Shown here: positions 1 through 26,464 of the stretch, one piece after another
Numbering within the stretch: position 1 is the first letter of the stretch
Layout of the letters: each line of letters begins with the position of its first letter
DNA from: Sinorhizobium meliloti
GTDB lineage: Bacteria; Pseudomonadota; Alphaproteobacteria; Rhizobiales; Rhizobiaceae
DNA: 32,000 nucleotides
Direction of reading: 5' to 3'
NCBI RefSeq assembly: GCF_017876815.1
Contig: NZ_JAGIOS010000001.1
Location: forward strand, 2,250,001 to 2,282,000
Made by a program: the position numbers and the translations under genes
The notes under the pieces: generated by a model
What the model saw: the letters and a program-made list of their open reading frames with translations, nothing else
Database searches by the model: none
What the model was told of the DNA's origin: nothing

Positions 1-2
1 AC

Positions 3-266
3 AATGCCGGCGTGAGCCATGCCGTCCTTGGACGCGCTCTCGCGGCCCATTCCCTCGGTCCGCCCCCTGTTCTCGTCGGCCACGACATCTCGCCGGATGC
101 GGAGCGCATGCTGCAGGAGGGGGTAATGACGTTGGTGATAGACCAGAATCCCGACCTGCAGGTCCGCAAAGCCTTGCTTATCCTTGCATCGCGCTTCGGA
201 TTGCCGGGCGGCGTCGCCGAGAGCCCGGTCGTGCCCTTCACCGTGCTCGTCAGGGATAGTCTCTGA
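3..266 (+). CDS. LacI/GalR-family transcriptional regulator, C-terminal fragment (5' end outside window)
   Basis: The frame is open to the window edge and stops at TGA 264-266. The tail ...VLVGHDISPDAERMLQEGVMTLVIDQNPDLQVRKAL... resembles the end of the sugar-binding core of LacI-type repressors. It lies directly upstream of a sugar ABC operon. Confidence 0.6.
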   Translation, partial: NAGVSHAVLGRALAAHSLGPPPVLVGHDISPDAERMLQEGVMTLVIDQNPDLQVRKALLILASRFGLPGGVAESPVVPFTVLVRDSL

Positions 267-345
267 CGCGAGTGCTCCGTTCTCAGTGGACATGTTGCGA
301 CCCGGTCGAGCCGCGGGGTGCCGACCGTCGCGCGCATCATTTGCG

Positions 346-363
346 TTGAGGGAATTCCCTCAA
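346..363. promoter_or_regulatory. Perfect 18-bp palindrome TTGAGGGAATTCCCTCAA, candidate operator
   Basis: Self-complementarity was checked base by base. It sits in the 400-nt gap between the repressor gene and the transporter operon. It has an AATT centre rather than the CG centre usual for LacI operators. Confidence 0.3.
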
Positions 364-482
364 AATACCTCTGGGCCACACCATGCATGTTGCTATTCTG
401 AAACAACCAGAGGCTGAGGTTTCGAGGAGCGGCTGCGGAGCGTGAGGTGCAGGGAGTGCTGCACCTCTTCTCGCGGGCCCCC

Positions 483-531
483 TCTGCTGCATGTCTCCCT
501 TGATCGCCGATCAAAGGAGACATGCAGCAGA
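483..531. repeat. 49-nt near-perfect palindrome (24-nt arms, one mismatch, single-base centre at 507)
   Basis: Arms 483-506 and 508-531 pair at every position except 499/515. It contains GATCAA(A/G)G three times: minus sense at 499-506, plus sense at 509-516 and 530-537. It lies about 140 nt upstream of the binding-protein start codon. Confidence 0.6.
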
Positions 532-667
532 TCAAAGTGCCACAGCAACTTTTGCGCGTCTGATGGGATGCGCGGCGCTGGAGGGAGGACGACGATCGGG
601 AGGAAGCGATCGTCGGCTGGAAAGCGCGGCTTCGGAATCGGGCACACTGTCAGCCACGGAGGAAACG

Positions 668-1702
668 ATGACAGAAAAGAACGGGAATGAACGGAATGAA
701 AGCAATGCGGGGCCCGGCGTCGGTCGCCGCCTGTTTCTGAAAACGGCGGGCATAGGCGGCGTGGCGGCAGCCAGCGGATTGGCCGCGCCGGCACTCGCAA
801 CGGGCGCAAAGCGGAAAGTCGTTTTCGTTGCGCATGAGGATATCCCATTCTTCGCCCCGGTTCGTGCCGGTTTCAAGGAGTTCGGCACCCTACGCGACTG
901 GGATGCCCAATTCTTCGCCCGCGGCACGCCGGCAAACGTCGCCGAAACCGTGCGGCTGCAGGTCGATGCGTTGAATTCCAAGCCCGATGCCGTCGGCTTT
1001 ACCCGCATCAACGAAACCGCTTTCGACGAAAACATCATGCGCGCCAAGGACGCCGGCATTCCCGTCGTTCTCTACAACGTGGCGAGCGCCGGCTACGAGA
1101 AGCTGGACGTTCCCTTCGTGGGCCAGGATTTCATCCCCGCCGGCCGGGTGAACGGGCTTCAGGCCGCCAAATATGCCCATCAGCTTACCGGTAAGACCGA
1201 AGGCAGGATCCTGATCGATAATCCCTCGCCCGGCGTCAGCGCCCTGGAAGAGCGCGCCACGGGCACTGAGCAGGGTATCGACGAATACAACAAGCAAAAC
1301 GGGACCAACTACACATACGAGACTTTCACCACCGCCAACAGCCAGACCGAGGCGTTGTCGCGCATCGACGCCAAGATGCGCGCAACTCCCGATGTGGTCG
1401 GCTTTGCCAGCACTGTCTCAGGCAACTGGTTCGCCGCGATCTGGGCCGAGGACAACGGAATGACCGGAAAATTCGCCAATGGCGGGTTTGACCTCATCCC
1501 GGGCGTCCTCGAGGCCATCGCCGCGGAGACGTCCCACTGGGCGATCGGGCAGAACCCCTTTGCCCAGGGCTGGGTCACGGCGTCGCTGCTCGATATGCAG
1601 CTCGAGGCCGGGTACAAGCCGTTCGACTACGACACGGGCGCCGAAGTCGTCGACAAATCGAACATCGAAGCGGTGGCCGAGCGCGAGGCGCGCTTCGGCT
1701 AA
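668..1702 (+). CDS. Sugar ABC transporter substrate-binding protein (type I periplasmic-binding fold) with twin-arginine signal peptide
   Basis: ORF 491-1702. ATG 668 is preferred because GGAGGA lies just upstream. The N-terminus GRRLFLKTAGIGGVAAASGLAAPALA matches the Tat motif RRxFLK plus an h-region and AxA site. The mature part resembles RbsB/FrcB-like binding proteins. Confidence 0.8.
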   Translation: MTEKNGNERNESNAGPGVGRRLFLKTAGIGGVAAASGLAAPALATGAKRKVVFVAHEDIPFFAPVRAGFKEFGTLRDWDAQFFARGTPANVAETVRLQVDALNSKPDAVGFTRINETAFDENIMRAKDAGIPVVLYNVASAGYEKLDVPFVGQDFIPAGRVNGLQAAKYAHQLTGKTEGRILIDNPSPGVSALEERATGTEQGIDEYNKQNGTNYTYETFTTANSQTEALSRIDAKMRATPDVVGFASTVSGNWFAAIWAEDNGMTGKFANGGFDLIPGVLEAIAAETSHWAIGQNPFAQGWVTASLLDMQLEAGYKPFDYDTGAEVVDKSNIEAVAEREARFG

Positions 1703-1711
1703 GCGAGCGGT

Positions 1712-1740
1712 CACGTGCGCCCCGCACGGGGCGGCACATG
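1712..1740 (+). terminator. GC-rich imperfect hairpin after the binding-protein gene (possible intra-operon attenuator)
   Basis: GTGCGCCCC-gcac-GGGGCGGCAC with one bulge, 10 nt after the stop codon. No U-tract follows. This position after SBP genes is typical in ABC operons. Confidence 0.3.
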
Positions 1741-1802
1741 TCAAAGGGCGAGGGCGATACCGGCGACTTGTTTCGTCGGCATCGCTCGAGCGGGGAGGAC
1801 AC

Positions 1803-2561
1803 ATGCTTCGAGTTCAAAACCTGACCAAACGCTTCGGCCATGTGACGGCCATAAGCAACGTTTCGGCCAATATCCGCAAGGGCCGGGTGACCGCTCTCCT
1901 GGGCGATAACGGTGCTGGCAAATCCACCTTGGTCAAGATGATCTGTGGAACCTATAAGCCGACGCAAGGCAGCGTCTGGGTCAATGGCAAACAGGTCCAC
2001 ATGGACAGTGCGCGCGATGCACTGGCCTTGGGGATCACTGCCGTCTATCAGGATCTGGCGCTGGTCGACCAGCGCAACGTGATACACAACATCTCGCTCG
2101 GCAATATTCCCACCAAATGGGGCGGGCTGGTCGTAGATCGCAAGAAGATGCGGGAGACCGCGGAAAACGCTCTCAGTTACATGAAGGCGAAGCTTCCTTC
2201 TCTCGATATCCCGGTCTCCTCGATGTCTGGCGGGCAGCGTCAGGCCGTGGCGATAGCGAGAGCCTGTGCCTCCGGCGGGCAACTCGTCATCATGGACGAA
2301 CCGACGGCGGCGCTCGGGATTCGCGAGCAGCGCATGGTGCTCGATGTCGTCCACGACCTGCGGGCGCATGGCACGTCCGTTCTGATCATCAGTCATAATC
2401 TGGATCATGTTTTCGAGGTGGCCGACGATCTCCTCATCCTGCGCGGCGGCCGCGTCGTCGCGGAAGTCGAGCGCAATGCCGTCAGTCACGACGAAGTCGT
2501 TCGTCTGATTCTGGCGGGCCAACCCCGAGACGCTGACCTTGAAGAGGAGGTAGCCGCATGA
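1803..2561 (+). CDS. Sugar ABC transporter ATP-binding protein (single ABC domain, FrcA-like)
   Basis: Internal ATG 1803 of ORF 1479-2561 is preceded by GGAGG. Walker A GDNGAGKST, signature SGGQRQ and Walker B LVIMDEPT are present. The upstream part of the ORF is Arg/Ser/Pro-rich junk. Confidence 0.9.
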   Translation: MLRVQNLTKRFGHVTAISNVSANIRKGRVTALLGDNGAGKSTLVKMICGTYKPTQGSVWVNGKQVHMDSARDALALGITAVYQDLALVDQRNVIHNISLGNIPTKWGGLVVDRKKMRETAENALSYMKAKLPSLDIPVSSMSGGQRQAVAIARACASGGQLVIMDEPTAALGIREQRMVLDVVHDLRAHGTSVLIISHNLDHVFEVADDLLILRGGRVVAEVERNAVSHDEVVRLILAGQPRDADLEEEVAA

Positions 2562-3562
2562 GCGAGGCGAATGTGACTATGGCAGCATCCACCCCGCAAG
2601 CCGCGCTCGGCAGGAAGCTCGTGGCCGCAGCGGCAAATTCCCGCGAATTGTCCGTCATCCTGGCTGCGCTCGCCATGTTCGTCGCGCTTTCACTTTCGAC
2701 GGACACGTTCTTTACCGAACTAAATCTGCTGAACCTTCTGAGGCAGATATCCGTCATCGGCATTCTTGCCGTCGGCAGCACCTTCATCTTTATCTCCGGC
2801 GAGATTGATTTGTCGGTCGGCGCATTGCTTGGGCTGCTGGCGATGATCTGCGCCGCCTTGGCGATCAAGATGGAGGGCAACATCTACGGTGCCGCGCTCG
2901 TCGTGGTGGCTCTGGGCGCGATATTGTCGGGCATCAACGGTGTCATCACGACGAAACTGCGCATTCCCTCCTTCATCACCACGCTCGGCATGCTCAGCAT
3001 CTACAGCGGCGCGACACTGGTGCTCTCCAAGGGCATGCCGATCTCCGGCCTGCAAAACGACCTTTTCCGCTCCCTCGTCGCCGGCCGGCTCTTCGGGGTC
3101 GTTCCAGCGCAGGTGATCTGGATGGTGGCCGCGGGCATATTCGGCACCTACCTCCTGCTGTTTACCCGCTTCGGCTATAACGTCTTTGCCACAGGCGGCA
3201 ACAAGAACGCGGCCAAGGCCGTCGGCATCAACACCGACCGGGTGAAGATTCTCGCCTTCGTGGTCAGCGGTATCATGGTCGGCGTCACCTCCTTCATTCT
3301 CGTCGGCTGGTTCCGTGGCGTGGACCCGCAGACCGGCAACGGCCTGGAACTCAGCGTCATCGCGGCGGTCATCATCGGCGGCACCGGCCTGTTCGGGGGG
3401 CAGGGAAGTGTCCTCGGCACGCTGGTGGGCGCGCTGATCATCGGCATGATATCGAACGGCACCGTCCTGCTGGGCGTGGATTCCTATTATGAGCCTGTGG
3501 CGCATGGAACGGTCATCCTGCTTGCCGTCATCATCGATATCTGGGTGCGCAGGCAGCGGTGA
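2558..3562 (+). CDS. ABC transporter permease (RbsC/FrcC-like monosaccharide permease family)
   Basis: ATGA overlap with the ATPase stop codon, with GAGGAGG upstream. The protein is highly hydrophobic and multi-TM, with the Gly-rich C-terminal segments typical of this family. Confidence 0.85.
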   Translation: MSEANVTMAASTPQAALGRKLVAAAANSRELSVILAALAMFVALSLSTDTFFTELNLLNLLRQISVIGILAVGSTFIFISGEIDLSVGALLGLLAMICAALAIKMEGNIYGAALVVVALGAILSGINGVITTKLRIPSFITTLGMLSIYSGATLVLSKGMPISGLQNDLFRSLVAGRLFGVVPAQVIWMVAAGIFGTYLLLFTRFGYNVFATGGNKNAAKAVGINTDRVKILAFVVSGIMVGVTSFILVGWFRGVDPQTGNGLELSVIAAVIIGGTGLFGGQGSVLGTLVGALIIGMISNGTVLLGVDSYYEPVAHGTVILLAVIIDIWVRRQR

Positions 3563-3582
3563 GGGCGGGCGGGGAGAAGGGA

Positions 3583-4446
3583 ATGTCCAAGAGAATAATC
3601 TTTACACAGTCGATCTGGGCGATGGAGCGCCGCGATCCCGATGGTGCGGAACGAAGCGCCGAGGAAAACCTGGATATGATTGCTGCGGCCGGCTTCGACG
3701 GTATCAGCGGTCCGTGCGCGGAGGCGGCAGCCGCCGATGCGCTTGCGGGCGCGGCGGCCGCGAGGGGGCTCGCCGCCCAGGCGGAATGGCAGTGCTTTCC
3801 CAAGACGGTCGACGATTTGAAGCCGGTTCTCGATTTCGCGGCGAAATGGGGCGGTCATCACATCTGCCTGCAGCCCGACGTCCGGCCACGCCGCTTCGAA
3901 GATTGCGTGCCGCTGCTCGAGAGCTGGCTGAGGCTCTCGGAGCAATCGCCGATACCGGTCTGGATCGAGACGCACAGGGACCGGATGACGACCGATCTCT
4001 ACTTCACGCTCGATCTCCTCGAGGCGTTCCCGACCATGGAACTCGTGGCCGACCTTTCCCACTATCTCGTCGGGCGTGAATTCGCATGGCCCGTCAGCGC
4101 GGAAAACCATGGCTACGTCAACAGCATCCTCGACCGGTCCCGGGCGCTGCATGGACGGGTCGCCAGCCGCGAGCAGGTACAGATCGAGATCAGCTTTGCG
4201 CACCACAAGCCGCTGGTCGACCAGTTCCTGGACTGGTGGGAAAGGGCGATGCGCAACTATCTCCTTCGCCCGCAGGACGAGGCGCCGTTCGCATTCAATT
4301 GCGAGCTGGGCCCGCGGCCATATGCGATCACCGATCGTGACGGTCGCGACACGACGGACCGATGGGCTGAGGCGCTGCAACTGCGAGACCTCGTAAGGGA
4401 ACGCTGGGCGCGGGTGCAGGGCAGTCTCGCGTCATCTGCGGCTTGA
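3583..4446 (+). CDS. Sugar phosphate isomerase/epimerase family protein (xylose-isomerase-like TIM barrel; MocC/IolE-type)
   Basis: ATG 3583 is preceded by GGGGAGAAGGGA. The length (287 aa) and general pattern (IFTQSIW..., ...IETHR..., ...ADLSHY...) are consistent with AP-endonuclease-2/xylose-isomerase-like barrels. The family call is by recognition, not by search. Confidence 0.55.
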   Translation: MSKRIIFTQSIWAMERRDPDGAERSAEENLDMIAAAGFDGISGPCAEAAAADALAGAAAARGLAAQAEWQCFPKTVDDLKPVLDFAAKWGGHHICLQPDVRPRRFEDCVPLLESWLRLSEQSPIPVWIETHRDRMTTDLYFTLDLLEAFPTMELVADLSHYLVGREFAWPVSAENHGYVNSILDRSRALHGRVASREQVQIEISFAHHKPLVDQFLDWWERAMRNYLLRPQDEAPFAFNCELGPRPYAITDRDGRDTTDRWAEALQLRDLVRERWARVQGSLASSAA

Positions 4447-4469
4447 AGAACATAATGGAGGAAACGGAT

Positions 4470-5468
4470 ATGAGTGACGCTGTTCAACCCGAAAAGCCGA
4501 ATACCGGTGGCTGGGCGCCGCCGAAACCCGTCGAGACGCCTCCGGTCTTCGTGTGGCCTCCCAAACCCATGGAGCTGTTCAAATGGCTGTTCGGCAAGGA
4601 GGGCTACCTGCTACCCCTCAACATTCCGATCATGCTGATCTCGACCTTCATCTGGTGGTATTTCATTCCCGACCTGGAGCGGATGAAGACATTCGAATTC
4701 GGGTGGATCGCGCAGGTTTATGCCGTCAATCTGGTGTCGCTCGTCGTCTGGACCACGATCTGGCATGCCCGTTTCTACGTGCAGCGGGCGCAGGACACCG
4801 AGTACAAGTACAACAGGCGCTGGCCGAAGGATACCGAGACGTTCATGTTCGGCAGCCAGTTGCTCGACAATATGTTCTGGACGCTGGTGAGCGGTGTCAC
4901 CATCTGGACCGCCTATCTGGTGGTTACGCTGTGGGCGATGGCCAACGGCTGGCTACCCTACCTCGATATGGCGGAGCATCCCTTCTATTTCGCGCTGTTC
5001 ATGTTCCTCATCGCCCTGTTCCGTGAGTTTCATTTCTACTCCGTCCACCGGCTGCTTCACTTCGGACCGCTCTACAAGTGGGTGCACTCGATCCATCACA
5101 AGAACTCGAATCCGATCCCGTGGTCGGGCATGGCGATGCATCCGGTCGAACACCTGTTCTATATGTCCGGCGTGCTCATCCACTGGATCATCCCATCCAA
5201 TCCGCTCCTGGTAGTCTACCATCTGCAGCACCTGGCCTTTATGCCCGCCCCGGATCACAGCGGCTTTGCAAAGCTGGTCGTGAACGGCAAGGCGCAAATG
5301 GATGTCGCCACCTACATGCACTACCTCCACCACCGCTATTTCGAGGTGAATTACGGCGGGGATGGTTCCGTGCCGCTCGATCGCCTGTTCGGGACCTGGC
5401 ACAACGGGTCGGCGGAAGCCCATGAGCGGATGAACAGGCGCTTCAAGGAAAAGAAACTCCAGCGCTGA
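4470..5468 (+). CDS. Integral-membrane di-iron oxygenase, fatty acid hydroxylase/sterol desaturase superfamily (MocD-like)
   Basis: ATG 4470 lies 7 nt after GGAGGA. Several hydrophobic helices are present. Histidine boxes HRLLH, HSIHH(KN) and HYLHHRYF are diagnostic of the membrane di-iron hydroxylase/desaturase family. Confidence 0.75.
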   Translation: MSDAVQPEKPNTGGWAPPKPVETPPVFVWPPKPMELFKWLFGKEGYLLPLNIPIMLISTFIWWYFIPDLERMKTFEFGWIAQVYAVNLVSLVVWTTIWHARFYVQRAQDTEYKYNRRWPKDTETFMFGSQLLDNMFWTLVSGVTIWTAYLVVTLWAMANGWLPYLDMAEHPFYFALFMFLIALFREFHFYSVHRLLHFGPLYKWVHSIHHKNSNPIPWSGMAMHPVEHLFYMSGVLIHWIIPSNPLLVVYHLQHLAFMPAPDHSGFAKLVVNGKAQMDVATYMHYLHHRYFEVNYGGDGSVPLDRLFGTWHNGSAEAHERMNRRFKEKKLQR

Positions 5469-5564
5469 AGTTCAAACCCACCCGTGTCCGGCCGGCCACG
5501 CCGGCCGGCGGGCTTCGGGGAGCATGGCATGAGACCTAGGAGAGGGCCGGTGCATCAGGAAAAT

Positions 5565-6791
5565 ATGGTTATCGTCGGATGCGGTCACGCTGGCGCGCGA
5601 GCGGCGCAGGCCTTGCGGACGAACGGTTGGCACGGCGGGATCACGTTGGTGGATGGCGAGGGCCGCACGCCATACGAACGCCCTCCGCTGTCGAAGGCGG
5701 TGCTGAAAGGAGAGAGCGAGGCAGAGGATGCCCCGCTCTTCCCCGCGGACTTTCTCGCGAAGAACGACATCCACGTTCTGAAGGGGGTCGCGGCCGCGGC
5801 GATCGATCGGCCGACGAGGCAACTGCGATTGTCGGATGGCGGCTCCATCGCCTATCACCGTCTCCTGCTGGCGACCGGAGCGGAGCCGCGCAACCTGATC
5901 GTGCCGGGTGCCGACCTGCCCGGTAGCCACACGCTGCGGAGCGCGGACGACGCCGCCCGGATCTTTCCTTACCTGCGGCCCGGGGCGGAGATCGTCATTG
6001 TCGGAGGCGGGCTAATCGGCCTGGAAGCGGCTGCGAGCGCCACCGTCCGAGGATGCAAGGTTACCGTGGTCGAAGCAGGGCCCAGGCCGATGATGCGGGC
6101 GGTGCCGGCAGAGCTGTCCCACGAAGTCCGCCTGTTCCATGAAAGCAAGGACGTGCGCTTCGTTCTTGGACGCCAGGTGAGCGAGTTGGAAGGCGATGGT
6201 CGCGTCCGTTGCGTTCGTCTCGACGACGGCACGGTCCTGCCATGCACAGCCGTGGTGATCTCGGTGGGCGTCTCCCCCCGGACGGCGCTTGCGGAGGCCG
6301 CGGGACTGGAAATCGACAACGGCATCGCTGTGGACCGTTTCCTGCGGACCTCTGACCCCTTCATCTATGCCGCGGGAGACGCCTGCGCCTTCGAGCAGGT
6401 CTCCGGCCCGCGCATGCGCCTGGAGTGCTGGAAGAATGCGGAGGATCAGGGAACGCTTGCCGGCCGGAACATGCTTGGCAGCGACGAAGCATACGTGCCG
6501 TTGCCATGGATGTGGTCCGATCAGTTCGACCGGACGATGCAGATTGCCGGCCAGGCCGGAGGCAGCGCGGAAGACGTGCGGCGGCGTTGCCCGGACGGTA
6601 CGCTGCTGATCTATCACCTCGACAAGGACCAGATGATCCTCGGCATCAGCGGCTTCGGCTCCATTCGCGAGGTTTCGCGGGGGGTCCGGATGGGTCAACT
6701 CCTCATGGAAAGGGGAATCCGGCCTGGAAGAAAGGCGCTGGCGGATCCAGAATTCGACCTGCGGTCACTCGCCAAGGCGGCCGTGGCCTGA
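5565..6791 (+). CDS. FAD/NAD(P)H-dependent ferredoxin reductase (putidaredoxin-reductase class; MocF-like)
   Basis: MVIVGCGHAGARAA (GxGxxG), RPPLSK, a second dinucleotide fold IVIVGGGLIGLEAA, YAAGD and WSDQF...MQIAG. The start could alternatively be ATG 5529. Confidence 0.8.
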   Translation: MVIVGCGHAGARAAQALRTNGWHGGITLVDGEGRTPYERPPLSKAVLKGESEAEDAPLFPADFLAKNDIHVLKGVAAAAIDRPTRQLRLSDGGSIAYHRLLLATGAEPRNLIVPGADLPGSHTLRSADDAARIFPYLRPGAEIVIVGGGLIGLEAAASATVRGCKVTVVEAGPRPMMRAVPAELSHEVRLFHESKDVRFVLGRQVSELEGDGRVRCVRLDDGTVLPCTAVVISVGVSPRTALAEAAGLEIDNGIAVDRFLRTSDPFIYAAGDACAFEQVSGPRMRLECWKNAEDQGTLAGRNMLGSDEAYVPLPWMWSDQFDRTMQIAGQAGGSAEDVRRRCPDGTLLIYHLDKDQMILGISGFGSIREVSRGVRMGQLLMERGIRPGRKALADPEFDLRSLAKAAVA

Positions 6792-6857
6792 AGAGCGCCG
6801 CTCCGAAGGAAAGGGGCAGAACGTTGTGGACGTGCATAGTGAAAAGTGGAGTTGGGA

Positions 6858-7187
6858 ATGTTGGACGATAGGAACTGGGTCAAGGCATGCGACGCGAAGA
6901 AGGTCGGCCGAGAGGATGTTGCACGGTGGGACCACAGCGGCCGCAGTTTTGCGATATTCCGGACCGCTGACGATCAATATTACGCAACCGATGACATCTG
7001 CACTCACGAATATGCTCATATTTCGGATGGTTTCGTAGAGGGGACGACCGTCGAATGCCCAAGGCACGCCGGCTGCTTCGATTTCCGCACCGGCGAGGCG
7101 CTTAATCCGCCGGTTTGCGTCAACCTGCGCACCTTTCCCGTGAAAGTCGTGGATGGCGCGGTATACATAGACATCGACGAGCGATGA
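6858..7187 (+). CDS. Rieske-type [2Fe-2S] ferredoxin (MocE-like)
   Basis: CTH-x16-CPRH cluster-binding motif in a 109-aa soluble protein. ATG 6858 lies 6 nt after GGAG. Confidence 0.85.
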   Translation: MLDDRNWVKACDAKKVGREDVARWDHSGRSFAIFRTADDQYYATDDICTHEYAHISDGFVEGTTVECPRHAGCFDFRTGEALNPPVCVNLRTFPVKVVDGAVYIDIDER

Positions 7188-7249
7188 TGCTGGCAGGCTC
7201 GTTTGGCCTGCGGCGGTAACGGCGACCCACAGCACGAGGAGATCAGATA

Positions 7250-8290
7250 GTGGCAAAGGCGCTTGTACTTGAAAAGAAGGGGCAGTTGTCGCTGCGCGAC
7301 ATCCCGGTCCGGCGGGATCTGTCGCCGACCGACGTGCTGATCGGAATCCGCACCGTCGGCGTTTGCGGCTCCGATGTCCACTATTATACCCATGGAAAGA
7401 TCGGGCCCTTTGTCGTCAACGAGCCGATGATATTGGGCCACGAGGCCGCGGGCGTCGTTCTGGAGGTCGGCTCGCAAGTCCGGCATCTGAAGAAGGGTGA
7501 CCGTGTCTGCATGGAACCCGGCATTCCGGACCTCTCCTCCCGGTCGTCCAAGCTGGGCATCTACAATGTCGATCCGTCCGTACGGTTCTGGGCCACGCCG
7601 CCGGTCCATGGATGCCTGACGCCCGAGGTCGTTCATCCGGCGGCCTTCACCTATCGTCTGCCCGACCACGTGTCCTTCGCGGAAGGGGCGATGGTCGAGC
7701 CGTTCGCCATCGGCGTACAGGCCGCCCTTCGCGCGGGCATCAGGCCAGGCGATGTCGGCGCCGTCATGGGGGCCGGCCCGATCGGCATGATGACGGCACT
7801 GGCCGCGCTCGCGGGGGGATGCTCCAAGGTCTACGTGGCCGACCTCGCGCAGCCGAAGCTGGATGTCATCGGGGCCTATGAGGGTATCGAGACAATCAAT
7901 GTCCGCCAGCAGGCGGTATCCGAGGCTCTCGCGGGGGCGACGGGCGGCTGGGGGGCGGATGTCGTCTTCGAGTGCTCCGGAGCCGCACCCGCAATCCTTG
8001 CTCTTCCGAGTCTTGCGCGCCCGGGCGGAACCGTCGTGCTCGTCGGCATGCCCGTCGAACCCGTCCCCTTCGATATCGTCGGTATGCAGGCCAAGGAACT
8101 GCGGATCGAGACCGTGTTCCGCTATGCCAATGTCTACGACCGCGCTATCGAACTGATCGCCTCCGGCAAGGTCGATTTGAAACCGCTGATCTCGGCGACC
8201 ATTCCGTTCGACGAGAGTATCGCGGCCTTCGACCGCGCCGTCGAGGCGCGCCCCACGGACGTGAAGATACAGATCGAGATGCCGGCTTAA
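7250..8290 (+). CDS. Zn-dependent medium-chain polyol dehydrogenase (sorbitol/xylitol/L-idonate 5-dehydrogenase-like)
   Basis: GTG start preceded by [16 protein letters not shown] and GHEAAG zinc-ligand motifs and a GAGPIG Rossmann motif are present. Confidence 0.8.
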
Positions 8291-8370
8291 GGGCCGGCGG
8301 CTCGGCTCTCCGAACGCCTGCAACGTGCCGGCCGGTACCAATCGCAAACCGACAAGCGTCTGGATTCAAC

Positions 8371-9096
8371 ATGGAATTCTCCGGAAAATCAGTCATCGTC
8401 ACCGGCGGCGGCAAGGGCATCGGACGGGCGACGGTGGCGCTTCTGGCCGCGCGCGGCGCTCAGGTCGTGGCGCTCAGCCGCACGCAGTCCGATCTGGACG
8501 AACTCTCCAGTCAGACCGGCTGCCACGGCATCGTGGCCGACCTTGCCGATGCGGCGGCGGCGCGTGCCGCCATGGTGGAAGCGGGAACCTGTGACATCCT
8601 CGTCAATTGCGCGGGGACGAACGTGCTGGAAAGCCTCATCGACATGACGGATGACGGTTACGACGTCGTCATGAACACAAACCTGCGTGCCGCACTCATC
8701 TGCGCGCAGGAATTCGCCCGAGCCCGCATGGCGGCCGGTGGCGGAGGAGCGATCGTGAACGTCACCAGCATCGCGGGCCACCGCGGGTTTCAGAACCACG
8801 TCTGCTACGCGGCGTCCAAGGCCGGTCTCGAAGGCGCGACGCGCGTGATGGCAAAGGAACTTGGCCCATACGGGATCCGCGTCGTGGCCATAGCGCCCAC
8901 GATCACGATGACTGAGCTTGCGGCCGCGGCCTGGGCGGATCCGCAAAAGAGCGAGCCGATGATGGTCCGTCATCCCGCCGGGCGTTTCGCGACGGTCGAC
9001 GATGTCGCAAGGAGCATCGCCATGCTCCTCTCCTCGGATGCCGAAATGGTATCGGGAGCCGTCCTGCCGGTCGACGGCGGGTTCCTTGCCGTGTGA
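8371..9096 (+). CDS. Short-chain dehydrogenase/reductase (L-xylulose/carbonyl-reductase-like)
   Basis: Internal ATG of ORF 7972-9096. TGGGKGIG cofactor motif and the YAASK catalytic YxxxK are present. The Shine-Dalgarno sequence is weak. Confidence 0.85.
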   Translation: MEFSGKSVIVTGGGKGIGRATVALLAARGAQVVALSRTQSDLDELSSQTGCHGIVADLADAAAARAAMVEAGTCDILVNCAGTNVLESLIDMTDDGYDVVMNTNLRAALICAQEFARARMAAGGGGAIVNVTSIAGHRGFQNHVCYAASKAGLEGATRVMAKELGPYGIRVVAIAPTITMTELAAAAWADPQKSEPMMVRHPAGRFATVDDVARSIAMLLSSDAEMVSGAVLPVDGGFLAV

Positions 9097-9227
9097 GGGA
9101 TCGAGCCGAGCGAGATTTCGCCGAGCAACTTCGACGTCTGACGCCTTTCCTCCGGGCTTTCCTGCCGGTTCCAGTTTATGCCCATACATGACATTGTGCG
9201 AATCTGGAGCAAACTCTGAAGACCGGG

Positions 9228-10457
9228 ATGATGCCTGAAAGAATCGTGATCGTGGGGGGCGGGCAGGCCGGCGGCAGGGTCGCCCAGATACTGGCCGGTT
9301 CTCCCGCCAATCTCGATATTGCGCTGATCGGGCTTGAGCCGCATCCGCCGTACAACCGCCCCCCGCTTTCCAAGGGCGTGCTTTTGGGAAAGTCCGAACT
9401 GAAGGATTGCGTGATCTGGCCGCAGGGCGACGCGACGGCGGGCAGGGTGCGGTTCTATCCTGGTCGCAGGGCGGAATCGCTCGATATTCATGCGAGACAT
9501 GTGATCACGGATGATGGGGCGAGGCTCGATTACGACAAGCTCGTCCTAGCAACCGGATCACGCGTGCGCCGCCTATCGGTTCCAGGTGCGGAATGCGACG
9601 GCGTCTTCACCTTGCGCACCTTCGATGATGCCGTCGCGATCGCACGGCGATTTCACAGGAGCAAGCGTCTTCTCGTCGTAGGCGGCGGCTTCGTCGGGCT
9701 CGAGATCGCCGCGGCAGCCCGTTCGCGCGGGCTCGAAACGGTCGTCGTCGAAGCGACCAACAGGTTGCTTTCGCGAATAGTCCCTCAGGAGATCGGCGCG
9801 GCCCTGGCGCGCTACCACGAGGCTGCCGGCGTCTCGTTCCGCGTGGGCTCGATGGTCGAGAAGCTTGTGGCCAACCGCTCCGGAAAACTGAAATCGGCAG
9901 TTTTGTCCAACGGCGAAACAGTTCCATGCGACCTGGCGGTGATCGGTGTCGGCGTCACGGCGAATACCGAGCTTGCCAAGGAGGCGGGATTGGAAGTCCA
10001 AGTCGGCATCCGCACCGATTCGGCGCTGCGTGCCTCTGCCGACGGTGTCTACGCATGCGGAGATGCGGTCTCTTTCTGGCATCCGTTGTTCGAGCGCTAT
10101 GTACGCGTCGAGGCCTGGCAGAATGCGGAGGACCACGCACGGGTCGTGGCGTCTCAGCTTCTCGGGCAGGACATGGTCTGCGACACCGTGCCCTTCTTCT
10201 GGTCGGACCAGTATGAGTGGTCGATGCAGATTGCCGGCATTCCCTATTTCGGCAGTCAACTCGTCACGAATACCGTGGAAGAGGCCAAGATCCTTTACCA
10301 CCTCGATGCCCGCGGCCGCCTCGTCGCCGCGACCGGCCTGGGCCATGACAGGCTCATCGGCAGGAAGATCGCCGAGGCGCGCCGGCTGATCAAGCGGCGC
10401 GCCCGGCCGAACCCGCAGATGCTGAAGACAGGGCAGATTCAGTTGGAGGATGGCTAG
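9228..10457 (+). CDS. Second FAD/NAD(P)H-dependent ferredoxin reductase (paralog of 5565-6791)
   Basis: IVIVGGGQAGG, RPPLSK, LLVVGGGFVGLEIAA, YACGD and WSDQY...MQIAG. It has the same architecture as the first reductase. Confidence 0.8.
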   Translation: MMPERIVIVGGGQAGGRVAQILAGSPANLDIALIGLEPHPPYNRPPLSKGVLLGKSELKDCVIWPQGDATAGRVRFYPGRRAESLDIHARHVITDDGARLDYDKLVLATGSRVRRLSVPGAECDGVFTLRTFDDAVAIARRFHRSKRLLVVGGGFVGLEIAAAARSRGLETVVVEATNRLLSRIVPQEIGAALARYHEAAGVSFRVGSMVEKLVANRSGKLKSAVLSNGETVPCDLAVIGVGVTANTELAKEAGLEVQVGIRTDSALRASADGVYACGDAVSFWHPLFERYVRVEAWQNAEDHARVVASQLLGQDMVCDTVPFFWSDQYEWSMQIAGIPYFGSQLVTNTVEEAKILYHLDARGRLVAATGLGHDRLIGRKIAEARRLIKRRARPNPQMLKTGQIQLEDG

Positions 10458-10552
10458 GCGGCCGTTGCCGCGGAACCGCGCCCGCAACGATCTCTAGCCC
10501 GGGTCGAAATTCGCGAACCAGGAGGCGCTTCGGAGCCAGTCTCGTTGCGACG

Positions 10553-10951
10553 TCAGGATTTCTGCGCGTTGCCCGGAAGTAGACTTTGCGGCTCTCCGAT
10601 TTCTACCGCATGCCTGTCTGGATCAAAGAAGCGGAACACTCGCTGCCCCCATGCTTGACGCTCTATGGGATGTATCATTTCCACGTGCGGTGCGATGTTT
10701 TCGAAGGCCGCCTCGATGTCCTCATGTTCGAAATACAACAGGAGATTTCGTCGCCCATAGGGTTCTTCCGCAACAATCGCCTTTCCCCAAATGGTTTCTT
10801 CAAGTGAACTACCCTCGTGGATCGCAAAGCCGGTCTCAAAAAGGACGAAGTTTCCGAAGTCCTCCAATACCTTCAGACCCAGTCTCTTCTGGTAAAAGTC
10901 CTTGGAGCGATCGATGTCTCGGACGAACGGGATCGGGTTGATAAAGCGCAT
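10553..10951 (-). CDS. VOC (glyoxalase/bleomycin-resistance/dioxygenase fold) family protein
   Basis: Internal ATG 10951 is preceded by GGGGAG. The 132-aa protein begins MRFINPIPFVRDIDRSKDFYQKRLGL..., which is typical of the VOC beta-alpha-beta-beta-beta module. The gene is visibly more AT-rich than its neighbours. Confidence 0.65.
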   Translation of the reverse strand: MRFINPIPFVRDIDRSKDFYQKRLGLKVLEDFGNFVLFETGFAIHEGSSLEETIWGKAIVAEEPYGRRNLLLYFEHEDIEAAFENIAPHVEMIHPIERQAWGQRVFRFFDPDRHAVEIGEPQSLLPGNAQKS

Positions 10952-11209
10952 TGGACTCCCCGTGTAAGTGCAAAGTCGCCCGGATCGGCTTCGCGCCGTA
11001 ACAGCGCGCAACGGATGGTGCTTCCGCACATCTTACTGGCTGTGTCCTACACGACAACTGAACCGCAGCCTTGGACGCGACGAGGGGCCGAAACTGTGAA
11101 CTGTTGCACCTTTTCCAGTCTTGCGAATGACAATTCGAGTGCGGAGCGTTTAGCTCCGGAGGGAGAAAGTGAATGGGATTTCCCCTTTTCAGAACGGAAG
11201 GAAGCAGCG

Positions 11210-12052
11210 ATGGCGACCGCACACAAACTCGAGCGGCTGACGAAATGGGCATCACGTCCGGAATGGCACGAGGCGATGGAGAACTTGCTCGACAGCCATG
11301 TCTTCCTGGTCACCGGACGTTACGACCTCGACCTCGATGAGCTTGCGGATATTATCGGAGAGACTGCTGTCATGAACCTTTGGGCGTGCACGTTCGAAGA
11401 CATGCTCTCGCGCGATTTCGACGGGCGCAATCTTGCCGAAGACTATCTCAAGCGCCGGGGCTGGAAGGAGAGTGCCAGCAACCGCGCCTATATCAAGGCA
11501 TTGAGCGATGCGCGCATGAGCCTCTACGAAGTCAGCGGTATCAAGCGGGGTCAAGGCTTTTTCGCGCGCGATCTTATGCGCGGCGGCGAGCCGGTCTGGG
11601 TCAATGAGGGGTTGAGGACCCATGACCTCGCCGAGGGGGATCGGCTGGCTGCGCGCATCGTCGAGGTCAACGGACGCGCGGAGCTCGGCTTGGCTACCTT
11701 GTGGTTTTCGCTGGTGGCGAGCGAAGAGGTCATCGAGACTTTCGAGGAACTGAAGAACCTGAGCCGGAAGGAAATGGCCGGCATGATGACCGGCCTGGTC
11801 GAAGCCCTGGAGGCCGAGGGCGGTATGGCCGATGCGGTGGACGGGATCAGCCTCGAAGAGTTCAAACAGGCAATCGCTGGGGATGCCGGGGACGCGTCGG
11901 ACGAGCCGATGGGAATCGAAGCCATTCTCGCATCCAGTCCCGAACAGTTCACCAATATCTGGCTGGAGCATATGCTGGACAGGCTCCTCGGCCCGCCGTC
12001 GGGTCTGGAGGACGATGCCGACGAGCCTGAAGAGATCGACGACCGAAAATAG
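11210..12052 (+). CDS. Hypothetical protein with acidic C-terminus, no family recognised
   Basis: ATG 11210 is preceded by GGAAGGAAG. The upstream part of ORF 10817-12052 overlaps the VOC gene on the other strand and is discounted. GC-rich third codon positions support coding. The tail is ...EDDADEPEEIDDRK. Confidence 0.5.
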   Translation: MATAHKLERLTKWASRPEWHEAMENLLDSHVFLVTGRYDLDLDELADIIGETAVMNLWACTFEDMLSRDFDGRNLAEDYLKRRGWKESASNRAYIKALSDARMSLYEVSGIKRGQGFFARDLMRGGEPVWVNEGLRTHDLAEGDRLAARIVEVNGRAELGLATLWFSLVASEEVIETFEELKNLSRKEMAGMMTGLVEALEAEGGMADAVDGISLEEFKQAIAGDAGDASDEPMGIEAILASSPEQFTNIWLEHMLDRLLGPPSGLEDDADEPEEIDDRK

Positions 12053-12084
12053 GAAGGTGCGCGCGGCAGGCGCATGCGATCACG

Positions 12085-12121
12085 TCCGTGGTTTCACGCC
12101 GGATCGGCCTGAAACCACGGA
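12085..12121. terminator. Perfect 12-bp-stem hairpin between convergent genes (bidirectional terminator candidate)
   Basis: TCCGTGGTTTCA-N13-TGAAACCACGGA, verified base by base. There is no strong U-tract on either side. Confidence 0.45.
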
Positions 12122-12139
12122 TACGTTATCCGGCCCCGG

Positions 12140-14701
12140 TTACGTCCGCGGCTTCAGGTTTTCCGGGTCGTAGAGCGGCTTGTAGCCGACGCCGGCGACC
12201 TCGACCGGGTAGGTCTCGGCGAAATACTCGACATTGAGCTTGCGTCCGACCTGGCAATGGGACCAGGGCAGATAGGCGAGCGCTATGTTCTTCCCGATCG
12301 TCGGACCGTAGGCGATGGAAGTGGTGTAGGAGCGGCGGCCGAGTTCGTCCACCAGCACCTCGCCGGTCTCCGGGTCCATGACCGGCAGGTTGCCGACCGG
12401 GTAGCGCTTCACGCCGTTCCTGTCGGTGTTCTCCGTCATGACGAGCGTGCAGAGCATGGCGGGCTGGTGCTCGCGCGCCTTGTACTCCAGATGCTTCGCC
12501 TTGCCGCGGAAGTCCGCTTCCTTGACCTTCGGACGGGCAAGGTCGGCCTCGATAAGGTTGTAGTGGGTGAGAAGATCCGCGTTCTGCAGGCGGAGGCTCT
12601 TTTCCATGCGGCGCGAGTTCGCATAGGTCTCGACGCCGAAGGCCATGACGCCGGTGGCGCGCAGCGCATCCCAGACGGCCAGGCCGTCCTCGTATTTCAT
12701 GTGCAGTTCCCAGCCCTGCTCGCCGACATAGGAGATGCGGAAGGCGGAGACCGGCCTGCCGGCGATCTCGATCTGCTTGATCGAGGCGAAGGGGAAGTTC
12801 TCAGGATCGAGGCCCGCCGGTTCCGCCACCACCTTCTTCAGCGTCTCGCGGGCATTCGGGCCCCAGATGCCGATGGTGACGAACTTCTCCGAAACGTCCG
12901 TGATGGTGACGTCTAGGCCCCGGTCTTCCGCGACACGGCGCATATAGTGGAAGTCGCGCGGGCCGGCATCGGCGCCGTTCACGAGGCGGCAGCGGTCGGC
13001 CATGCGGAAGACGGTGAAGTCGGCCCGCACCATGCCCTCGTCATCGAGGAAGTGGGTGTAGATGCCCTTGCCGATATTGCCGTCTCCACCGATCTTTGCG
13101 GCGCAAAGCCATTCGAGAAGCTCGACGTGGTCCGGGCCCTCAATGTCGACCATGTGGAAGTGCGAGAGGTTGACGATGCCGCAATCCTCGCTCATCGCCA
13201 GATGTTCGGCGTTGGAAACGCGCCAGAAGTGGCGGTTGTCCCACTCGTTCTCGCGTACCGGAATGCGGTTGCCGTATTTTTCGAGCAGGTGCTCGTTGGC
13301 GGCATAGCCGTGCGCACGCTCCCAGCCGCCGAGTTCCATGAAGTAGCCGCCGAGCTCCTTCTCGCGCTCGTAGAAGGGTGAGTGCTTGACGTTGCGGCCG
13401 CTGGCATAGGGCTCGCGCGGATGCACGGCCGGGAAATAGATCTTCTGCGCCGCCTCGAAGCAGCGGCCTTCGATGAACTTCTCTTCGAGCTGGTGCGGAT
13501 AGAAGCGGGCGTAGTCGATCGAGGCGTGGTCGGTATGGGTGCGCCCGTCCGTCATCCAGTCGGCGATCAGCTTGCCGTAGGCCGGGCCGTCCTTCACCCA
13601 GATGGCGACGCAGTACCAGAGGCCGCGCACCTTCTGGCTCTCGCCGCAGGAGGGGCCGCCGGCAGCCGATACCTGCAGCAGGCCATTGAAGGAGTGGCCC
13701 TCGTTATAGCCGAGCTCGCCGAGGATCGGCGTCAGTTCCATGGCGCGCTCGAGCGGCTCGATGATCTGCTCCATATCGAGGTCGCGCTGCGAGGGCGACA
13801 GGCGTGCCTCGTGCTTTTCGAGAATGTCGCGCGGATGGCAGAGGCGCGGATTGTCGGTCTCGTAATAGCCCCATTCGATCTGGCCGCCCTCGGTTGTCTT
13901 CGGGTCGCCGGTGTCGCGCATATAGGCCGAGTTGCCCTGATCGCGCAGCAATGGGAAGCCGATTTCCTTGCCGGTACCTTCGAATTCGTTGTACGGGCCG
14001 AAGAAGGTGAGCGGATGATCGACCGGCATGACGGGCAGGTCCTCGCCGACCATTTCAGCGATCAGGCGACCCCAGATGCCGGCGCAGACGACGACATGGT
14101 CGGCCATGATCGTGCCGCGATGCGTGACGACGCCCTTGATGCGGCCGTTCTCGACAAGCAGCGCAGTTGCCGGAGTATTGCCGAAGATCTGCAGCTTGCC
14201 GGACTTTTCCGCCGCATCGACCAGCTTGCCGGCAACCGTCTGCGAGCGCGGGACGACGAGGCCGGCATCCGGATCGAACATGCCGCCCATCACCTGATCT
14301 TCCTCGATCAGCGGGAACAGCTTCTTGATTTCGGCCGGCGAGACATAGTGTGCGCGGGTGCCGAAGGCCTTGGCGGAGGAAAGCTTGCGCTTGATTTCCT
14401 CCATCCAGACGTGGTCGCCGGTGCGTGCGACTTCCAGGCCGCCGATGCGGGCGTAGTGACCCATCTTCTCGAAGAAGTCGATCGAATATTGCGTCGTCCA
14501 GACCGAGAGATAGTCGTGGCTGGTGGTGTAGCAGAAGTCGGAGGCATGTGCCGTAGAGCCGATATCCGTCGGAATGCCCGACTTGTCGATGCCGACGATA
14601 TCGTCCCAGCCACGCTCGATGAGGTGGTGGGCGATCGATGCGCCGACGATGCCACCCAGTCCTACGATTACGACCTTCGCCTTTTCCGGAAACTCTGCCA
14701 T
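12140..14701 (-). CDS. FAD-dependent oxidoreductase fused to a GcvT (aminomethyltransferase) fold; dimethylglycine/sarcosine dehydrogenase-like
   Basis: 853 aa. N-terminal VVIVGLGGIVGAS dinucleotide fold, STAHASDF (position of the covalent-FAD histidine in this family) and a C-terminal folate-binding GcvT-like half. Confidence 0.85.
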   Translation of the reverse strand: MAEFPEKAKVVIVGLGGIVGASIAHHLIERGWDDIVGIDKSGIPTDIGSTAHASDFCYTTSHDYLSVWTTQYSIDFFEKMGHYARIGGLEVARTGDHVWMEEIKRKLSSAKAFGTRAHYVSPAEIKKLFPLIEEDQVMGGMFDPDAGLVVPRSQTVAGKLVDAAEKSGKLQIFGNTPATALLVENGRIKGVVTHRGTIMADHVVVCAGIWGRLIAEMVGEDLPVMPVDHPLTFFGPYNEFEGTGKEIGFPLLRDQGNSAYMRDTGDPKTTEGGQIEWGYYETDNPRLCHPRDILEKHEARLSPSQRDLDMEQIIEPLERAMELTPILGELGYNEGHSFNGLLQVSAAGGPSCGESQKVRGLWYCVAIWVKDGPAYGKLIADWMTDGRTHTDHASIDYARFYPHQLEEKFIEGRCFEAAQKIYFPAVHPREPYASGRNVKHSPFYEREKELGGYFMELGGWERAHGYAANEHLLEKYGNRIPVRENEWDNRHFWRVSNAEHLAMSEDCGIVNLSHFHMVDIEGPDHVELLEWLCAAKIGGDGNIGKGIYTHFLDDEGMVRADFTVFRMADRCRLVNGADAGPRDFHYMRRVAEDRGLDVTITDVSEKFVTIGIWGPNARETLKKVVAEPAGLDPENFPFASIKQIEIAGRPVSAFRISYVGEQGWELHMKYEDGLAVWDALRATGVMAFGVETYANSRRMEKSLRLQNADLLTHYNLIEADLARPKVKEADFRGKAKHLEYKAREHQPAMLCTLVMTENTDRNGVKRYPVGNLPVMDPETGEVLVDELGRRSYTTSIAYGPTIGKNIALAYLPWSHCQVGRKLNVEYFAETYPVEVAGVGYKPLYDPENLKPRT

Positions 14702-16055: not shown

Positions 16056-16067
16056 GTTCAGCGGTTC

Positions 16068-18544: not shown

Positions 18545-18577
18545 ATCTCCTCCCCAGGGGCTACTTCACGGCGCCTC

Positions 18578-21314: not shown

Positions 21315-21320
21315 TGCGTA

Positions 21321-22154: not shown

Positions 22155-22158
22155 GGTT

Positions 22159-23094: not shown

Positions 23095-23159
23095 CGATCG
23101 AAATTTCCCCTTTTTTGACCGCCGTTATCGATCGGCGTGCCTTTTCCTGCGTCGGACGA

Positions 23160-23183
23160 CCGGCGGCGGCTGACCGCCGCCGG
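23160..23183 (-). terminator. Perfect 10-bp GC hairpin after the binding-protein gene (intra-operon attenuator candidate)
   Basis: CCGGCGGCGG-ctga-CCGCCGCCGG, verified base by base, 9 nt after the SBP stop codon. Confidence 0.4.
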
Positions 23184-23191
23184 TGCCTGCG

Positions 23192-24454: not shown

Positions 24455-24491
24455 TTTATCGTTCCCTTTGTTCTCGCTGGTTGCGTGTTCG

Positions 24492-26377: not shown

Positions 26378-26464
26378 CCGGTTCTCCCAAGACCAGAATT
26401 GGTCTGACATCTGAGCAATATGCTGGGAATAGGAGAGGTGGTCAAGGGGCGAGTGAGCCGCAAT

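Follow-up and report, generated by a model that had tools for sequence, protein, structure and literature searches.

Methylated cyclitols and sugars, among them pinitol, ononitol and methyl-galactose, are major carbon pools of plants and algae, and the only bacterial carbohydrate demethylase that to our knowledge has been characterized biochemically is a cytochrome P450. In marine Bacteroidota, a P450, a ferredoxin and a ferredoxin reductase form a three-component system for the oxidative O-demethylation of a soluble methylated sugar, 6-O-methyl-D-galactose (PMC6292453, PMC9400963, PMC10033563); the reaction releases formaldehyde (PMC6292453, PMC9400963), the demethylase is linked to the detoxification of this product (PMC9400963), and use of the sugar involves unusual alcohol dehydrogenases (PMC10033563). 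MocDEF, the ferredoxin oxygenase complex of rhizopine (3-O-methyl-scyllo-inosamine) catabolism, was reported to be required for this methylated compound, whereas scyllo-inosamine did not depend on it (Bahar et al. 1998, as cited in PMC10107442). Here, we describe a gene cluster in a 32,000-nucleotide stretch of Sinorhizobium meliloti DNA (assembly GCF_017876815.1, contig NZ_JAGIOS010000001.1, positions 2,250,001 to 2,282,000 of the forward strand; this whole stretch is termed the window) that encodes a membrane di-iron oxygenase of the fatty-acid-hydroxylase or “sterol desaturase” family PF04116, hereafter the hydroxylase, together with a MocE-family Rieske ferredoxin, ferredoxin reductases and a sugar-type ATP-binding cassette (ABC) importer. 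We propose, with belief and doubt about evenly balanced, that the cluster is a LacI-regulated module for the uptake and oxidative O-dealkylation, most probably O-demethylation, of an imported carbohydrate.

Two further groups of enzymes frame the comparison. The PF04116 superfamily includes sterol C4-methyl oxidase and C5-desaturase, alkylglycerol monooxygenase, the sphingolipid alpha-hydroxylases Scs7/FA2H, CrtZ and the ornithine-lipid hydroxylase OlsE; its known members act on lipid substrates and draw electrons from cytochrome b5 or similar donors. The window enzyme shares with them a full-length profile match and the histidine boxes, and a hydropathy scan predicts four membrane segments, but it differs in its linkage to a soluble Rieske ferredoxin and sugar uptake genes; PDB searches and Foldseek gave no detectable sequence or fold match to a solved structure. 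The AlkB/XylM-type hydroxylases likewise combine a membrane 8-histidine oxygenase with a small soluble iron protein and an FAD reductase, but they belong to PF00487, act on hydrophobic substrates and use rubredoxin or a plant-type ferredoxin domain instead of a Rieske ferredoxin. The P450 sugar demethylase differs from the window system, whose function is predicted, in being built on a soluble heme protein rather than a membrane di-iron enzyme, and the proteins are unrelated; a point of likeness is that some homologues of the hydroxylase sit with sulfatases in marine-type genomes. “mocDEF-like” clusters beside LacI/FixV-type regulators and TIM barrels have been mentioned (PMC3538637, PMC5132102, PMC5789663), and the library that we searched yielded no publication separating the PF04116 from the PF00487 type, and none characterizing a PF04116 enzyme that pairs with a Rieske ferredoxin or acts on a carbohydrate.

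The window is part of the S. meliloti chromosome; its bases 1-11000 are 98.5% identical to the main replicon of S. meliloti Ak57 (CP090106.1), and strain 1021 has identical copies of the hydroxylase and the Rieske protein (entries Q92MT1 and Q92MT3). A reading of the window from its letters alone, which we refer to as the original prediction, had described ten same-strand genes behind a LacI-type repressor gene, with gaps of -4 to about 130 nt, and had named their protein types. Open reading frames together with Pfam and NCBIfam profile searches, by which the window proteins were assigned to families, bear out the genes, types and coordinates, the TIM barrel being supported by homologues and a structure model instead; the ten plus-strand genes (668-10457) are separated by computed gaps of -4 to 131 nt, and a spacer of 400 nt lies between the LacI 3' end and the first of them.

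3..266, plus strand: 3' end (last 88 codons) of a LacI-family regulator gene, from the frame-3 translation and the LacI annotation in CP090106.1; the remainder lies off the window.
668..1702, plus strand: solute-binding protein (SBP); Peripla_BP_4 (PF13407), 140.9 bits; N-terminal twin-arginine motif RRLFLK.
1803..2561, plus strand: single-domain ABC ATPase of 252 aa; PF00005; aligns to residues 1-240 of ~500-aa sugar ATPase profiles.
2558..3562, plus strand: ABC permease of the ribose/arabinose type; BPD_transp_2.
3583..4446, plus strand: divergent xylose-isomerase-like TIM barrel; homologues with PF01261, AlphaFold (AF2) model and Foldseek.
4470..5468, plus strand: membrane di-iron oxygenase of the fatty-acid-hydroxylase (“sterol desaturase”) family, the terminal oxygenase; PF04116.
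5565..6791, plus strand: FAD/NAD(P)H ferredoxin reductase, MocF-like; Pyr_redox_2 (229.9 bits) and Reductase_C.
6858..7187, plus strand: MocE-family Rieske [2Fe-2S] ferredoxin; TIGR02377, 193.6 bits, cut-off 136.15; CTH-x16-CPRH.
7250..8290, plus strand: Zn-dependent medium-chain dehydrogenase (Zn-ADH), sorbitol/idonate dehydrogenase-like; Pfam and NCBIfam.
8371..9096, plus strand: short-chain dehydrogenase/reductase (SDR) oxidoreductase; NF005465, 471 bits.
9228..10457, plus strand: second ferredoxin reductase, a paralogue 37% identical to the first.

The observation on which the original prediction rested is thus real, and its interpretation is partly supported. A three-component system of membrane 8-histidine di-iron enzyme, MocE-family Rieske ferredoxin and FAD ferredoxin reductase is present as claimed, as is its setting in a sugar-type ABC uptake cluster under LacI control, and, again in line with the original prediction, both profile libraries show that the cluster contains neither a Gfo/Idh/MocA (mocA) nor a GntR/MocR gene. 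The families FA_hydroxylase, Rieske, Pyr_redox_2 and Peripla_BP_4 were all matched as foreseen, but the TIM barrel gave no match to PF01261.

The hydroxylase matches PF04116 with 74.2 bits (cut-off 31) over profile positions 2-132 of 132, and its histidine boxes read HFYSVHRLLH, HSIHH and HYLHH. Two alignments, of 22 and of 40 homologues, show no variation at H188, H193, H197, H206, H209, H210, H224, H284, H287 and H288, while H228 is invariant in one of them and nearly so in the other. Four hydrophobic segments, delimited by a hydropathy scan only (48-66, 75-97, 136-157 and 165-192), precede the boxes, and the structure model has long helices there. That model reached a predicted local distance difference test score (pLDDT) of 77 and a best Foldseek E-value of 1.1 against the PDB, and sequence and profile searches of the PDB came back empty. 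The family is large, comprising 1,533 clusters at 90% identity (E<=1e-10) and at least 580 confirmed matches in one-genome-per-species collections, and it extends over Alphaproteobacteria, Gammaproteobacteria, Spirochaetia, Latescibacterota, Caldilineaceae and other taxa.

Comparison with the Moc proteins gives different answers for the oxygenase and for its electron carriers. S. meliloti replicons of pSymB size and many Rhizobium plasmids carry a LacI gene, a “fatty acid desaturase family protein”, a MocE-family ferredoxin and a reductase, an order that agrees with the strain 1021 annotation of SM_b20817 as LacI and of SM_b20818-20820 as mocD, mocE and mocF (PMC11387232). The desaturase-family protein of one such cluster (locus L094) belongs to PF00487 (126.6 bits), and the boxes of this annotated mocD type (L094, L095), namely HECGH, HTRHH and WNMNYHVEHH, fit the motifs tabulated for “hydrocarbon oxygenase MocD” (PMC2593844). 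By BLAST, the window ferredoxin is 52-54% identical to those beside annotated mocD, and reductases are 42-44% identical to those of mocD-type clusters (44% for the pSymB mocDEF-type cluster); by its profile score, the Rieske protein is a bona fide member of the MocE family. When the annotated PF00487 mocD-type protein was set against the window hydroxylase, BLAST gave no match at E<=1, and a profile-profile alignment with hhalign returned a probability of 0.35% over 17 columns around one HxxHH box. Because the two enzymes fall into different Pfam families and neither method relates them, the hydroxylase appears to be an analogue of MocD rather than a member of its family. With carriers this similar and oxygenases unrelated, one kind of electron-transfer pair would serve two unrelated membrane di-iron oxygenases, which points to convergent recruitment of both families to the same ferredoxin system.

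The likeness to MocDEF therefore has a definite extent. Shared are the MocE-family ferredoxin, the FAD reductase, a LacI-type regulator, a membrane 8-histidine di-iron oxygenase, the carbohydrate/cyclitol setting and a PanB-like one-carbon gene family that recurs with both oxygenase types; different are the oxygenase family (PF04116 in the window, PF00487 in the annotated MocD type), the absence of mocA, mocC and mocR from the window cluster, and the TIM barrel, which comes from another family than the barrel of mocD-type clusters. The original prediction had likened the cluster to the mocB, mocC, mocD, mocE and mocF set. This equation stands for the MocE and MocF-like carriers and falls for MocD and MocC, and for MocB only a remote likeness is left: the sole NCBIfam match of the SBP is the rhizopine SBP equivalog NF052284, at 66.3 bits against a cut-off of 420, so that the SBP would be MocB-like at most distantly. 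What emerges is a candidate three-component membrane oxygenase for a methylated carbohydrate that would be built on a different oxygenase family from the MocD type.

Three parallel ferredoxin-dependent membrane oxygenase systems occur in S. meliloti, on the chromosome, on pSymA and on pSymB-size replicons. The pSymA enzyme (NC_003037.1, 1159791-1160822; L093) belongs to PF04116 and is 45% identical to the chromosomal one, and the pSymB type (L094) belongs to PF00487. Among the plasmid records searched with tblastn, 341 matched the Rieske ferredoxin and 116 the hydroxylase, and a full mocRABCDEF set was not found in these records. Loci L005 and L006 were considered as “true moc” loci and rejected; they carry another hydroxylase clade, and their SBPs score 158-165 bits against the rhizopine SBP model.

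Conservation of the gene neighborhood indicates which genes belong with the hydroxylase. Neighbors of hydroxylase homologues were called in 92 loci by homology-supported clustering of open reading frames and by tblastn with reference proteins; by tblastn, they include a sugar-type ABC ATPase in 33 loci, a Rieske ferredoxin in 21, a LacI regulator in 20, a reductase in 18, the window-type TIM family in 12, an aldo-keto reductase in 11, and a Gfo/Idh/MocA dehydrogenase (19 by clustering), a sulfatase and a PhyH dioxygenase in 7 each. On a neighbor-joining tree, linkage of the hydroxylase to the Rieske ferredoxin and reductase recurs in several separate clades. A metagenomic orthologue at 80% identity lies in the order SDR (reverse strand), hydroxylase, reductase, Rieske, second reductase (reverse strand), LacI, SBP (77%), ATPase and permease, a cluster that largely keeps the core and has no TIM barrel. 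Mesorhizobium amorphae, with a hydroxylase at 59% identity, has Rieske, Zn-ADH, TIM barrel, reductase, second reductase, LacI and hydroxylase. The Sinorhizobium medicae cluster runs LacI remnants, SBP, ATPase, permease, TIM barrel, hydroxylase, reductase, Rieske and second reductase (reverse strand), and it occupies another chromosomal site than in S. meliloti. An SBP orthologue at 77% identity is found in locus L088; orthologues of the second reductase (58-64% identity) stand beside the Rieske gene in L088/L089 and L090, and in S. medicae (L098) a reductase gene takes the same position. From these comparisons, the portable core comprises LacI, SBP, ATPase, permease, TIM barrel, hydroxylase, reductase, Rieske ferredoxin and second reductase. 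Both reductase paralogues are conserved across the hydroxylase's own clade, yet there is a single Rieske ferredoxin gene.

The same linkage bears on whether the hydroxylase is an ordinary lipid enzyme, such as a sterol/hopanoid, ornithine-lipid or carotenoid hydroxylase, that came to lie in a sugar cluster by chance. Its database name (“sterol desaturase family protein”) and a Pfam family dominated by lipid enzymes would suggest as much. We nevertheless find this scarcely credible, given that the association with a MocE-type ferredoxin, a reductase, LacI, sugar ABC genes and the TIM family persists across clades, across genera and through relocation within Sinorhizobium, and that no lipid-pathway genes occur nearby according to the Pfam and NCBIfam assignments of the window proteins.

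Not every gene of the S. meliloti row shares this conservation. Neither the S. medicae nor the L088 cluster contains Zn-ADH. The same gene does occur, at 97% amino acid identity, in Sinorhizobium sp. C101, which lacks the cluster; there it abuts a homologue of window 12087-14000, and nothing in that strain corresponds to the window up to 7217 or to 8332-12086. The SDR is likewise absent in S. medicae, and the SDR of L088 is only 29% identical to it. Zn-ADH thus appears to be a resident, and conservation does not extend to the SDR. Because the S. medicae cluster has neither gene and the C101 Zn-ADH stands without the cluster, the ten-gene row of S. meliloti is a composite. In this respect, the uptake-and-oxidation operon of the original prediction is not supported; as S. 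meliloti-specific neighbors, Zn-ADH and SDR may or may not take part in the pathway. Synteny with C101 (L097) breaks at 7217/7218, 8331/8332 and 12086/12087; the block 8332-12086, which consists of the SDR, the second reductase, a glyoxalase-like gene and a hypothetical gene, and the sequence left of 7218 are lineage-specific relative to C101. The alignment with Ak57 falls into two pieces, over which Ak57 spans ~786 bp more than window 1-11000, and so this strain has an insertion somewhere to the right of the SDR gene.

Evidence on the chemistry comes from one-carbon genes of three independent kinds within related clusters. The M. amorphae Zn-ADH gene, between the Rieske and TIM genes, encodes S-(hydroxymethyl)glutathione dehydrogenase (TIGR02818, 596 bits, cut-off 544), that is, glutathione-dependent formaldehyde dehydrogenase. 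Two Rhizobium plasmid clusters run, in order, LacI, hydroxylase, SBP, permease, ATPase, MocE ferredoxin, TIM barrel, a PanB-like hydroxymethyltransferase, a reductase, the formyltetrahydrofolate deformylase PurU and, in L006, FolD, and FolD, PanB-like or PurN-like genes lie within 10 kb of the hydroxylase in seven further loci. One-carbon genes thus accompany the hydroxylase in about 10 of the 92 loci, against one or two expected by chance on a rough estimate. Since the SBP of the two Rhizobium clusters is 73.5% identical to that of an R. leguminosarum locus continuing into iolC and iolD, this sister system would import an inositol-like solute and handle a one-carbon unit, a combination by which one would recognize a methyl-inositol demethylase. 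It is because related clusters combine one-carbon genes with an inositol-type transporter that O-demethylation of an imported carbohydrate gains support, and the O-dealkylation raised in the original prediction thereby receives independent backing. A PanB-like gene of the folate-dependent ketopantoate hydroxymethyltransferase family was seen beside both PF00487 and PF04116 clusters, outside any pantothenate context (L094 9729-10529, L005, L006, L036, L044 and L069; the L094 and L069 genes are 56% identical).

The one-carbon genes also weigh on an alternative chemistry, in which the enzyme hydroxylates a C-H bond of an imported deoxy-cyclitol (such as a quercitol-type deoxyinositol) or deoxy-sugar (such as a 6-deoxyhexose), yielding an ordinary polyol or sugar that the TIM barrel and dehydrogenases would process, with no formaldehyde formed. 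PF04116 enzymes typically hydroxylate unactivated carbons, and the window cluster itself has dehydrogenases and an isomerase-like barrel and no one-carbon gene. Formaldehyde and folate genes in related clusters, by contrast, would be superfluous for simple hydroxylation, and the genetic precedent of MocDEF is a demethylation. We consider C-H hydroxylation distinctly unlikely.

The TIM barrel gave no Pfam match even at E<=1, PF01261 included, and no match in a PDB sequence search or an NCBIfam scan. It does have thousands of homologues, however, and many of those at ~60% identity carry PF01261. An AlphaFold (AF2) model built from 31 sequences (pLDDT 86.2, predicted template-modeling score (pTM) 0.88) shows the 8-fold beta/alpha pattern, and Foldseek matched it best to the L-xylulose-5-phosphate 3-epimerase UlaE (1e-9), followed by the isomerase Art22, ketose 3-epimerases and xylose isomerase with template-modeling (TM) scores of 0.60-0.65 at ~14% identity. 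On the grounds of these homologues and of the modeled fold, the protein is a divergent member of the xylose-isomerase-like superfamily that forms a family of its own, and it is predicted to be a metal-dependent sugar/inosose isomerase or epimerase. MocC is IolE-like. Because the barrel has no match at all in the NCBIfam library, which we take to contain an IolE model, it does not look like an IolE/MocC-type protein, and a mocC equivalent is accordingly missing from the comparison above. The barrel accompanying a mocD-type cluster is an ordinary PF01261 protein; identity of the window barrel with Msi119 (PMC3538637) was considered and rejected, as BLAST found no similarity to the barrel of the mocD-type cluster. 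The window barrel is 54-60% identical to barrels beside hydroxylase homologues in other clades, where the hydroxylase reaches only 44-52%, and because of this higher conservation we read it as a true functional partner of the hydroxylase.

The proposed O-demethylation would then proceed as follows. The Tat-exported SBP, the permease and the single-domain ATPase would take up the solute, a small water-soluble O-alkylated carbohydrate and most probably a methylated cyclitol or sugar of plant origin. Electrons would pass from NAD(P)H through the FAD reductase and the MocE-type Rieske ferredoxin to the membrane di-iron PF04116 enzyme, which would hydroxylate the O-methyl carbon, and the resulting hemiacetal would collapse into formaldehyde and the free carbohydrate. 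The TIM barrel would finally isomerize or epimerize the carbonyl form of the product into a mainstream intermediate. Of this scheme, the analysis establishes the protein families, the conserved linkage of the genes and the one-carbon and inositol setting of sister clusters, and it predicts from them the electron path, the demethylation, the part played by the barrel and the kind of substrate. Within PF04116, alkylglycerol monooxygenase, which cleaves an ether, and sterol C4-methyl oxidase, which oxidizes a methyl group, offer precedents for such steps.

Several points weigh against this proposal. The usual chemistry of PF04116 is C-H hydroxylation or desaturation of lipids, and we know of no member linked to a carbohydrate by experiment. 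Pfam and NCBIfam searches of the window cluster returned no formaldehyde or folate gene, and most of the 92 loci have no adjacent ferredoxin or reductase. The hydroxylase family evidently includes members with quite different substrates, because a 60%-identical homologue sits in an aminotransferase/amidohydrolase/GMC context. The contrast with MocD is weakened by the comparator, an annotated pSymB-type gene supplemented by published histidine-box motifs in place of the original L5-30 or 1a sequences. Finally, a TIM-barrel isomerase requires a carbonyl, and a cyclitol product would need a dehydrogenase, none of which is in the conserved core; because of this requirement, an aldose or ketose substrate, or reliance on inositol dehydrogenases encoded elsewhere, is slightly favored.

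That consideration enters into the more specific idea that the cluster is the S. meliloti pinitol/ononitol demethylase, delivering D-chiro- or myo-inositol to the iol pathway. The sole curated family matched by the SBP does bind a methyl-inosamine, rhizopine; the sister clade has an inositol-type transporter; R. mesoamericanum homologues of mocDEF, with the oxygenase type not determined, were induced by Mimosa exudate, whose main component was pinitol (PMC5789663); and both cyclitols accumulate in legume nodules (PMC8730688). Yet with parallel systems on chromosome, pSymA and pSymB, nothing assigns pinitol to the chromosomal one, whose SBP shares only ~27% identity with the inositol-type SBP; an inositol dehydrogenase is missing from the conserved core; and the hydroxylase family is common in marine and non-plant bacteria. 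A thesis on S. meliloti pinitol catabolism (cited in PMC12675435) may also assign other genes; apart from that thesis, which lay outside the search, no bacterial pinitol or methyl-inositol demethylase was found in the literature. On balance, the pinitol/ononitol assignment seems unlikely to us.

A different class of substrate is raised by loci L091/L092, where the neighbors of the 60%-identical hydroxylase homologue are genes for a GMC oxidoreductase, a DAO-type oxidase, DSBA, an amidohydrolase, a glyoxalase and two aminotransferases but none for a ferredoxin. Instead of an O-methyl ether, the window enzyme might by analogy N-demethylate or otherwise oxidize an amino compound, for instance an inosamine, a betaine-like solute or an amino sugar bearing an N-methyl group, all the more so as one-carbon genes would suit N-demethylation equally well and a gene resembling dimethylglycine/sarcosine dehydrogenases, which has a GcvT domain, is found 1.7 kb downstream of the cluster. 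The latter gene, however, is present at 96% nucleotide identity in a relative without the cluster and so stands outside it, and the transporter, the LacI regulator and the TIM barrel are all of carbohydrate type. We hold oxidation of an amino compound to be very improbable.

Returning to O-demethylation, we would tentatively extend the proposal beyond the window, at somewhat less than even confidence: PF04116 enzymes paired with MocE-type Rieske ferredoxins may constitute a large unrecognized class of membrane carbohydrate O-demethylases or ether-cleaving monooxygenases with an origin separate from both the PF00487 MocD type and the P450 sugar demethylases, the three S. meliloti systems may each serve a different methylated plant carbohydrate, and the TIM barrel may be a new isomerase/epimerase for the demethylated product. 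If so, a function would be found for over 1,500 protein clusters that come from several hundred species and now carry the label “sterol desaturase”, a soluble sugar would prove to be handled by enzymes otherwise taken to work on lipids, and concrete candidate genes for rhizosphere and nodule competitiveness would be at hand. A common annotation shortcut would also be corrected, in that MocE/MocF-like carriers here and on pSymA, and possibly elsewhere, serve a non-MocD oxygenase. Hydroxylase homologues stand with sulfatase, ThuA-like and aldo-keto reductase genes in L051, L065, L067 and L074 (Latescibacterota metagenome-assembled genomes) and in L056, L060 and L068, and this setting hints at a role in degrading sulfated, possibly methylated, algal polysaccharides.

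The importer has features of the CUT2 type, with which it shares a Peripla_BP_4 binding protein and a BPD_transp_2 permease, but it differs in its ATPase, which has 252 aa where CUT2 systems have a fused two-domain protein of ~500 aa. Its matches to the AraG/RbsA/XylG profiles of NCBIfam are confined to their N-terminal half, and a short ATPase of this kind is also found in the inositol-locus transporter of R. leguminosarum. A PDB sequence search with the SBP gave nothing close. Between the LacI and SBP genes lies a further feature:

483..531, strand not applicable: near-perfect palindrome of 49 nt with arms of 24 nt and a gap of 1 nt, in the LacI-SBP intergenic region.

Candidate identities are a repeat element, a terminator and an operator. 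Because about 100 nt around it (bases 488-584) match other replicons of Sinorhizobium sp. K101, C101 and M103 at 84%, the region looks like a dispersed intergenic repeat. No second copy was found in the window and no match in Rfam, and promoter and terminator scans scored no better than on shuffled sequence.

Beyond the cluster, the minus strand encodes at 12140-14701 an FAD oxidoreductase of 853 aa with a GcvT-like folate-binding C-terminal half (dimethylglycine/sarcosine dehydrogenase type), which is probably unrelated to the cluster because it also occurs in the relative without it. An extra heme-copper oxidase operon follows on the minus strand at 15333-19522, with COX2, COX1, two COX3-like genes and, per the Ak57 annotation, a subunit IV-like gene. 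The region 20247-28823 contains a second sugar ABC transporter, of the MalK/UgpC type (ATPase, two permeases and binding protein), and after it genes for a pyridoxal-phosphate enzyme of Cys/Met metabolism, a GntR regulator and a glutamine-synthetase-like protein of 683 aa that is extended at its N terminus.

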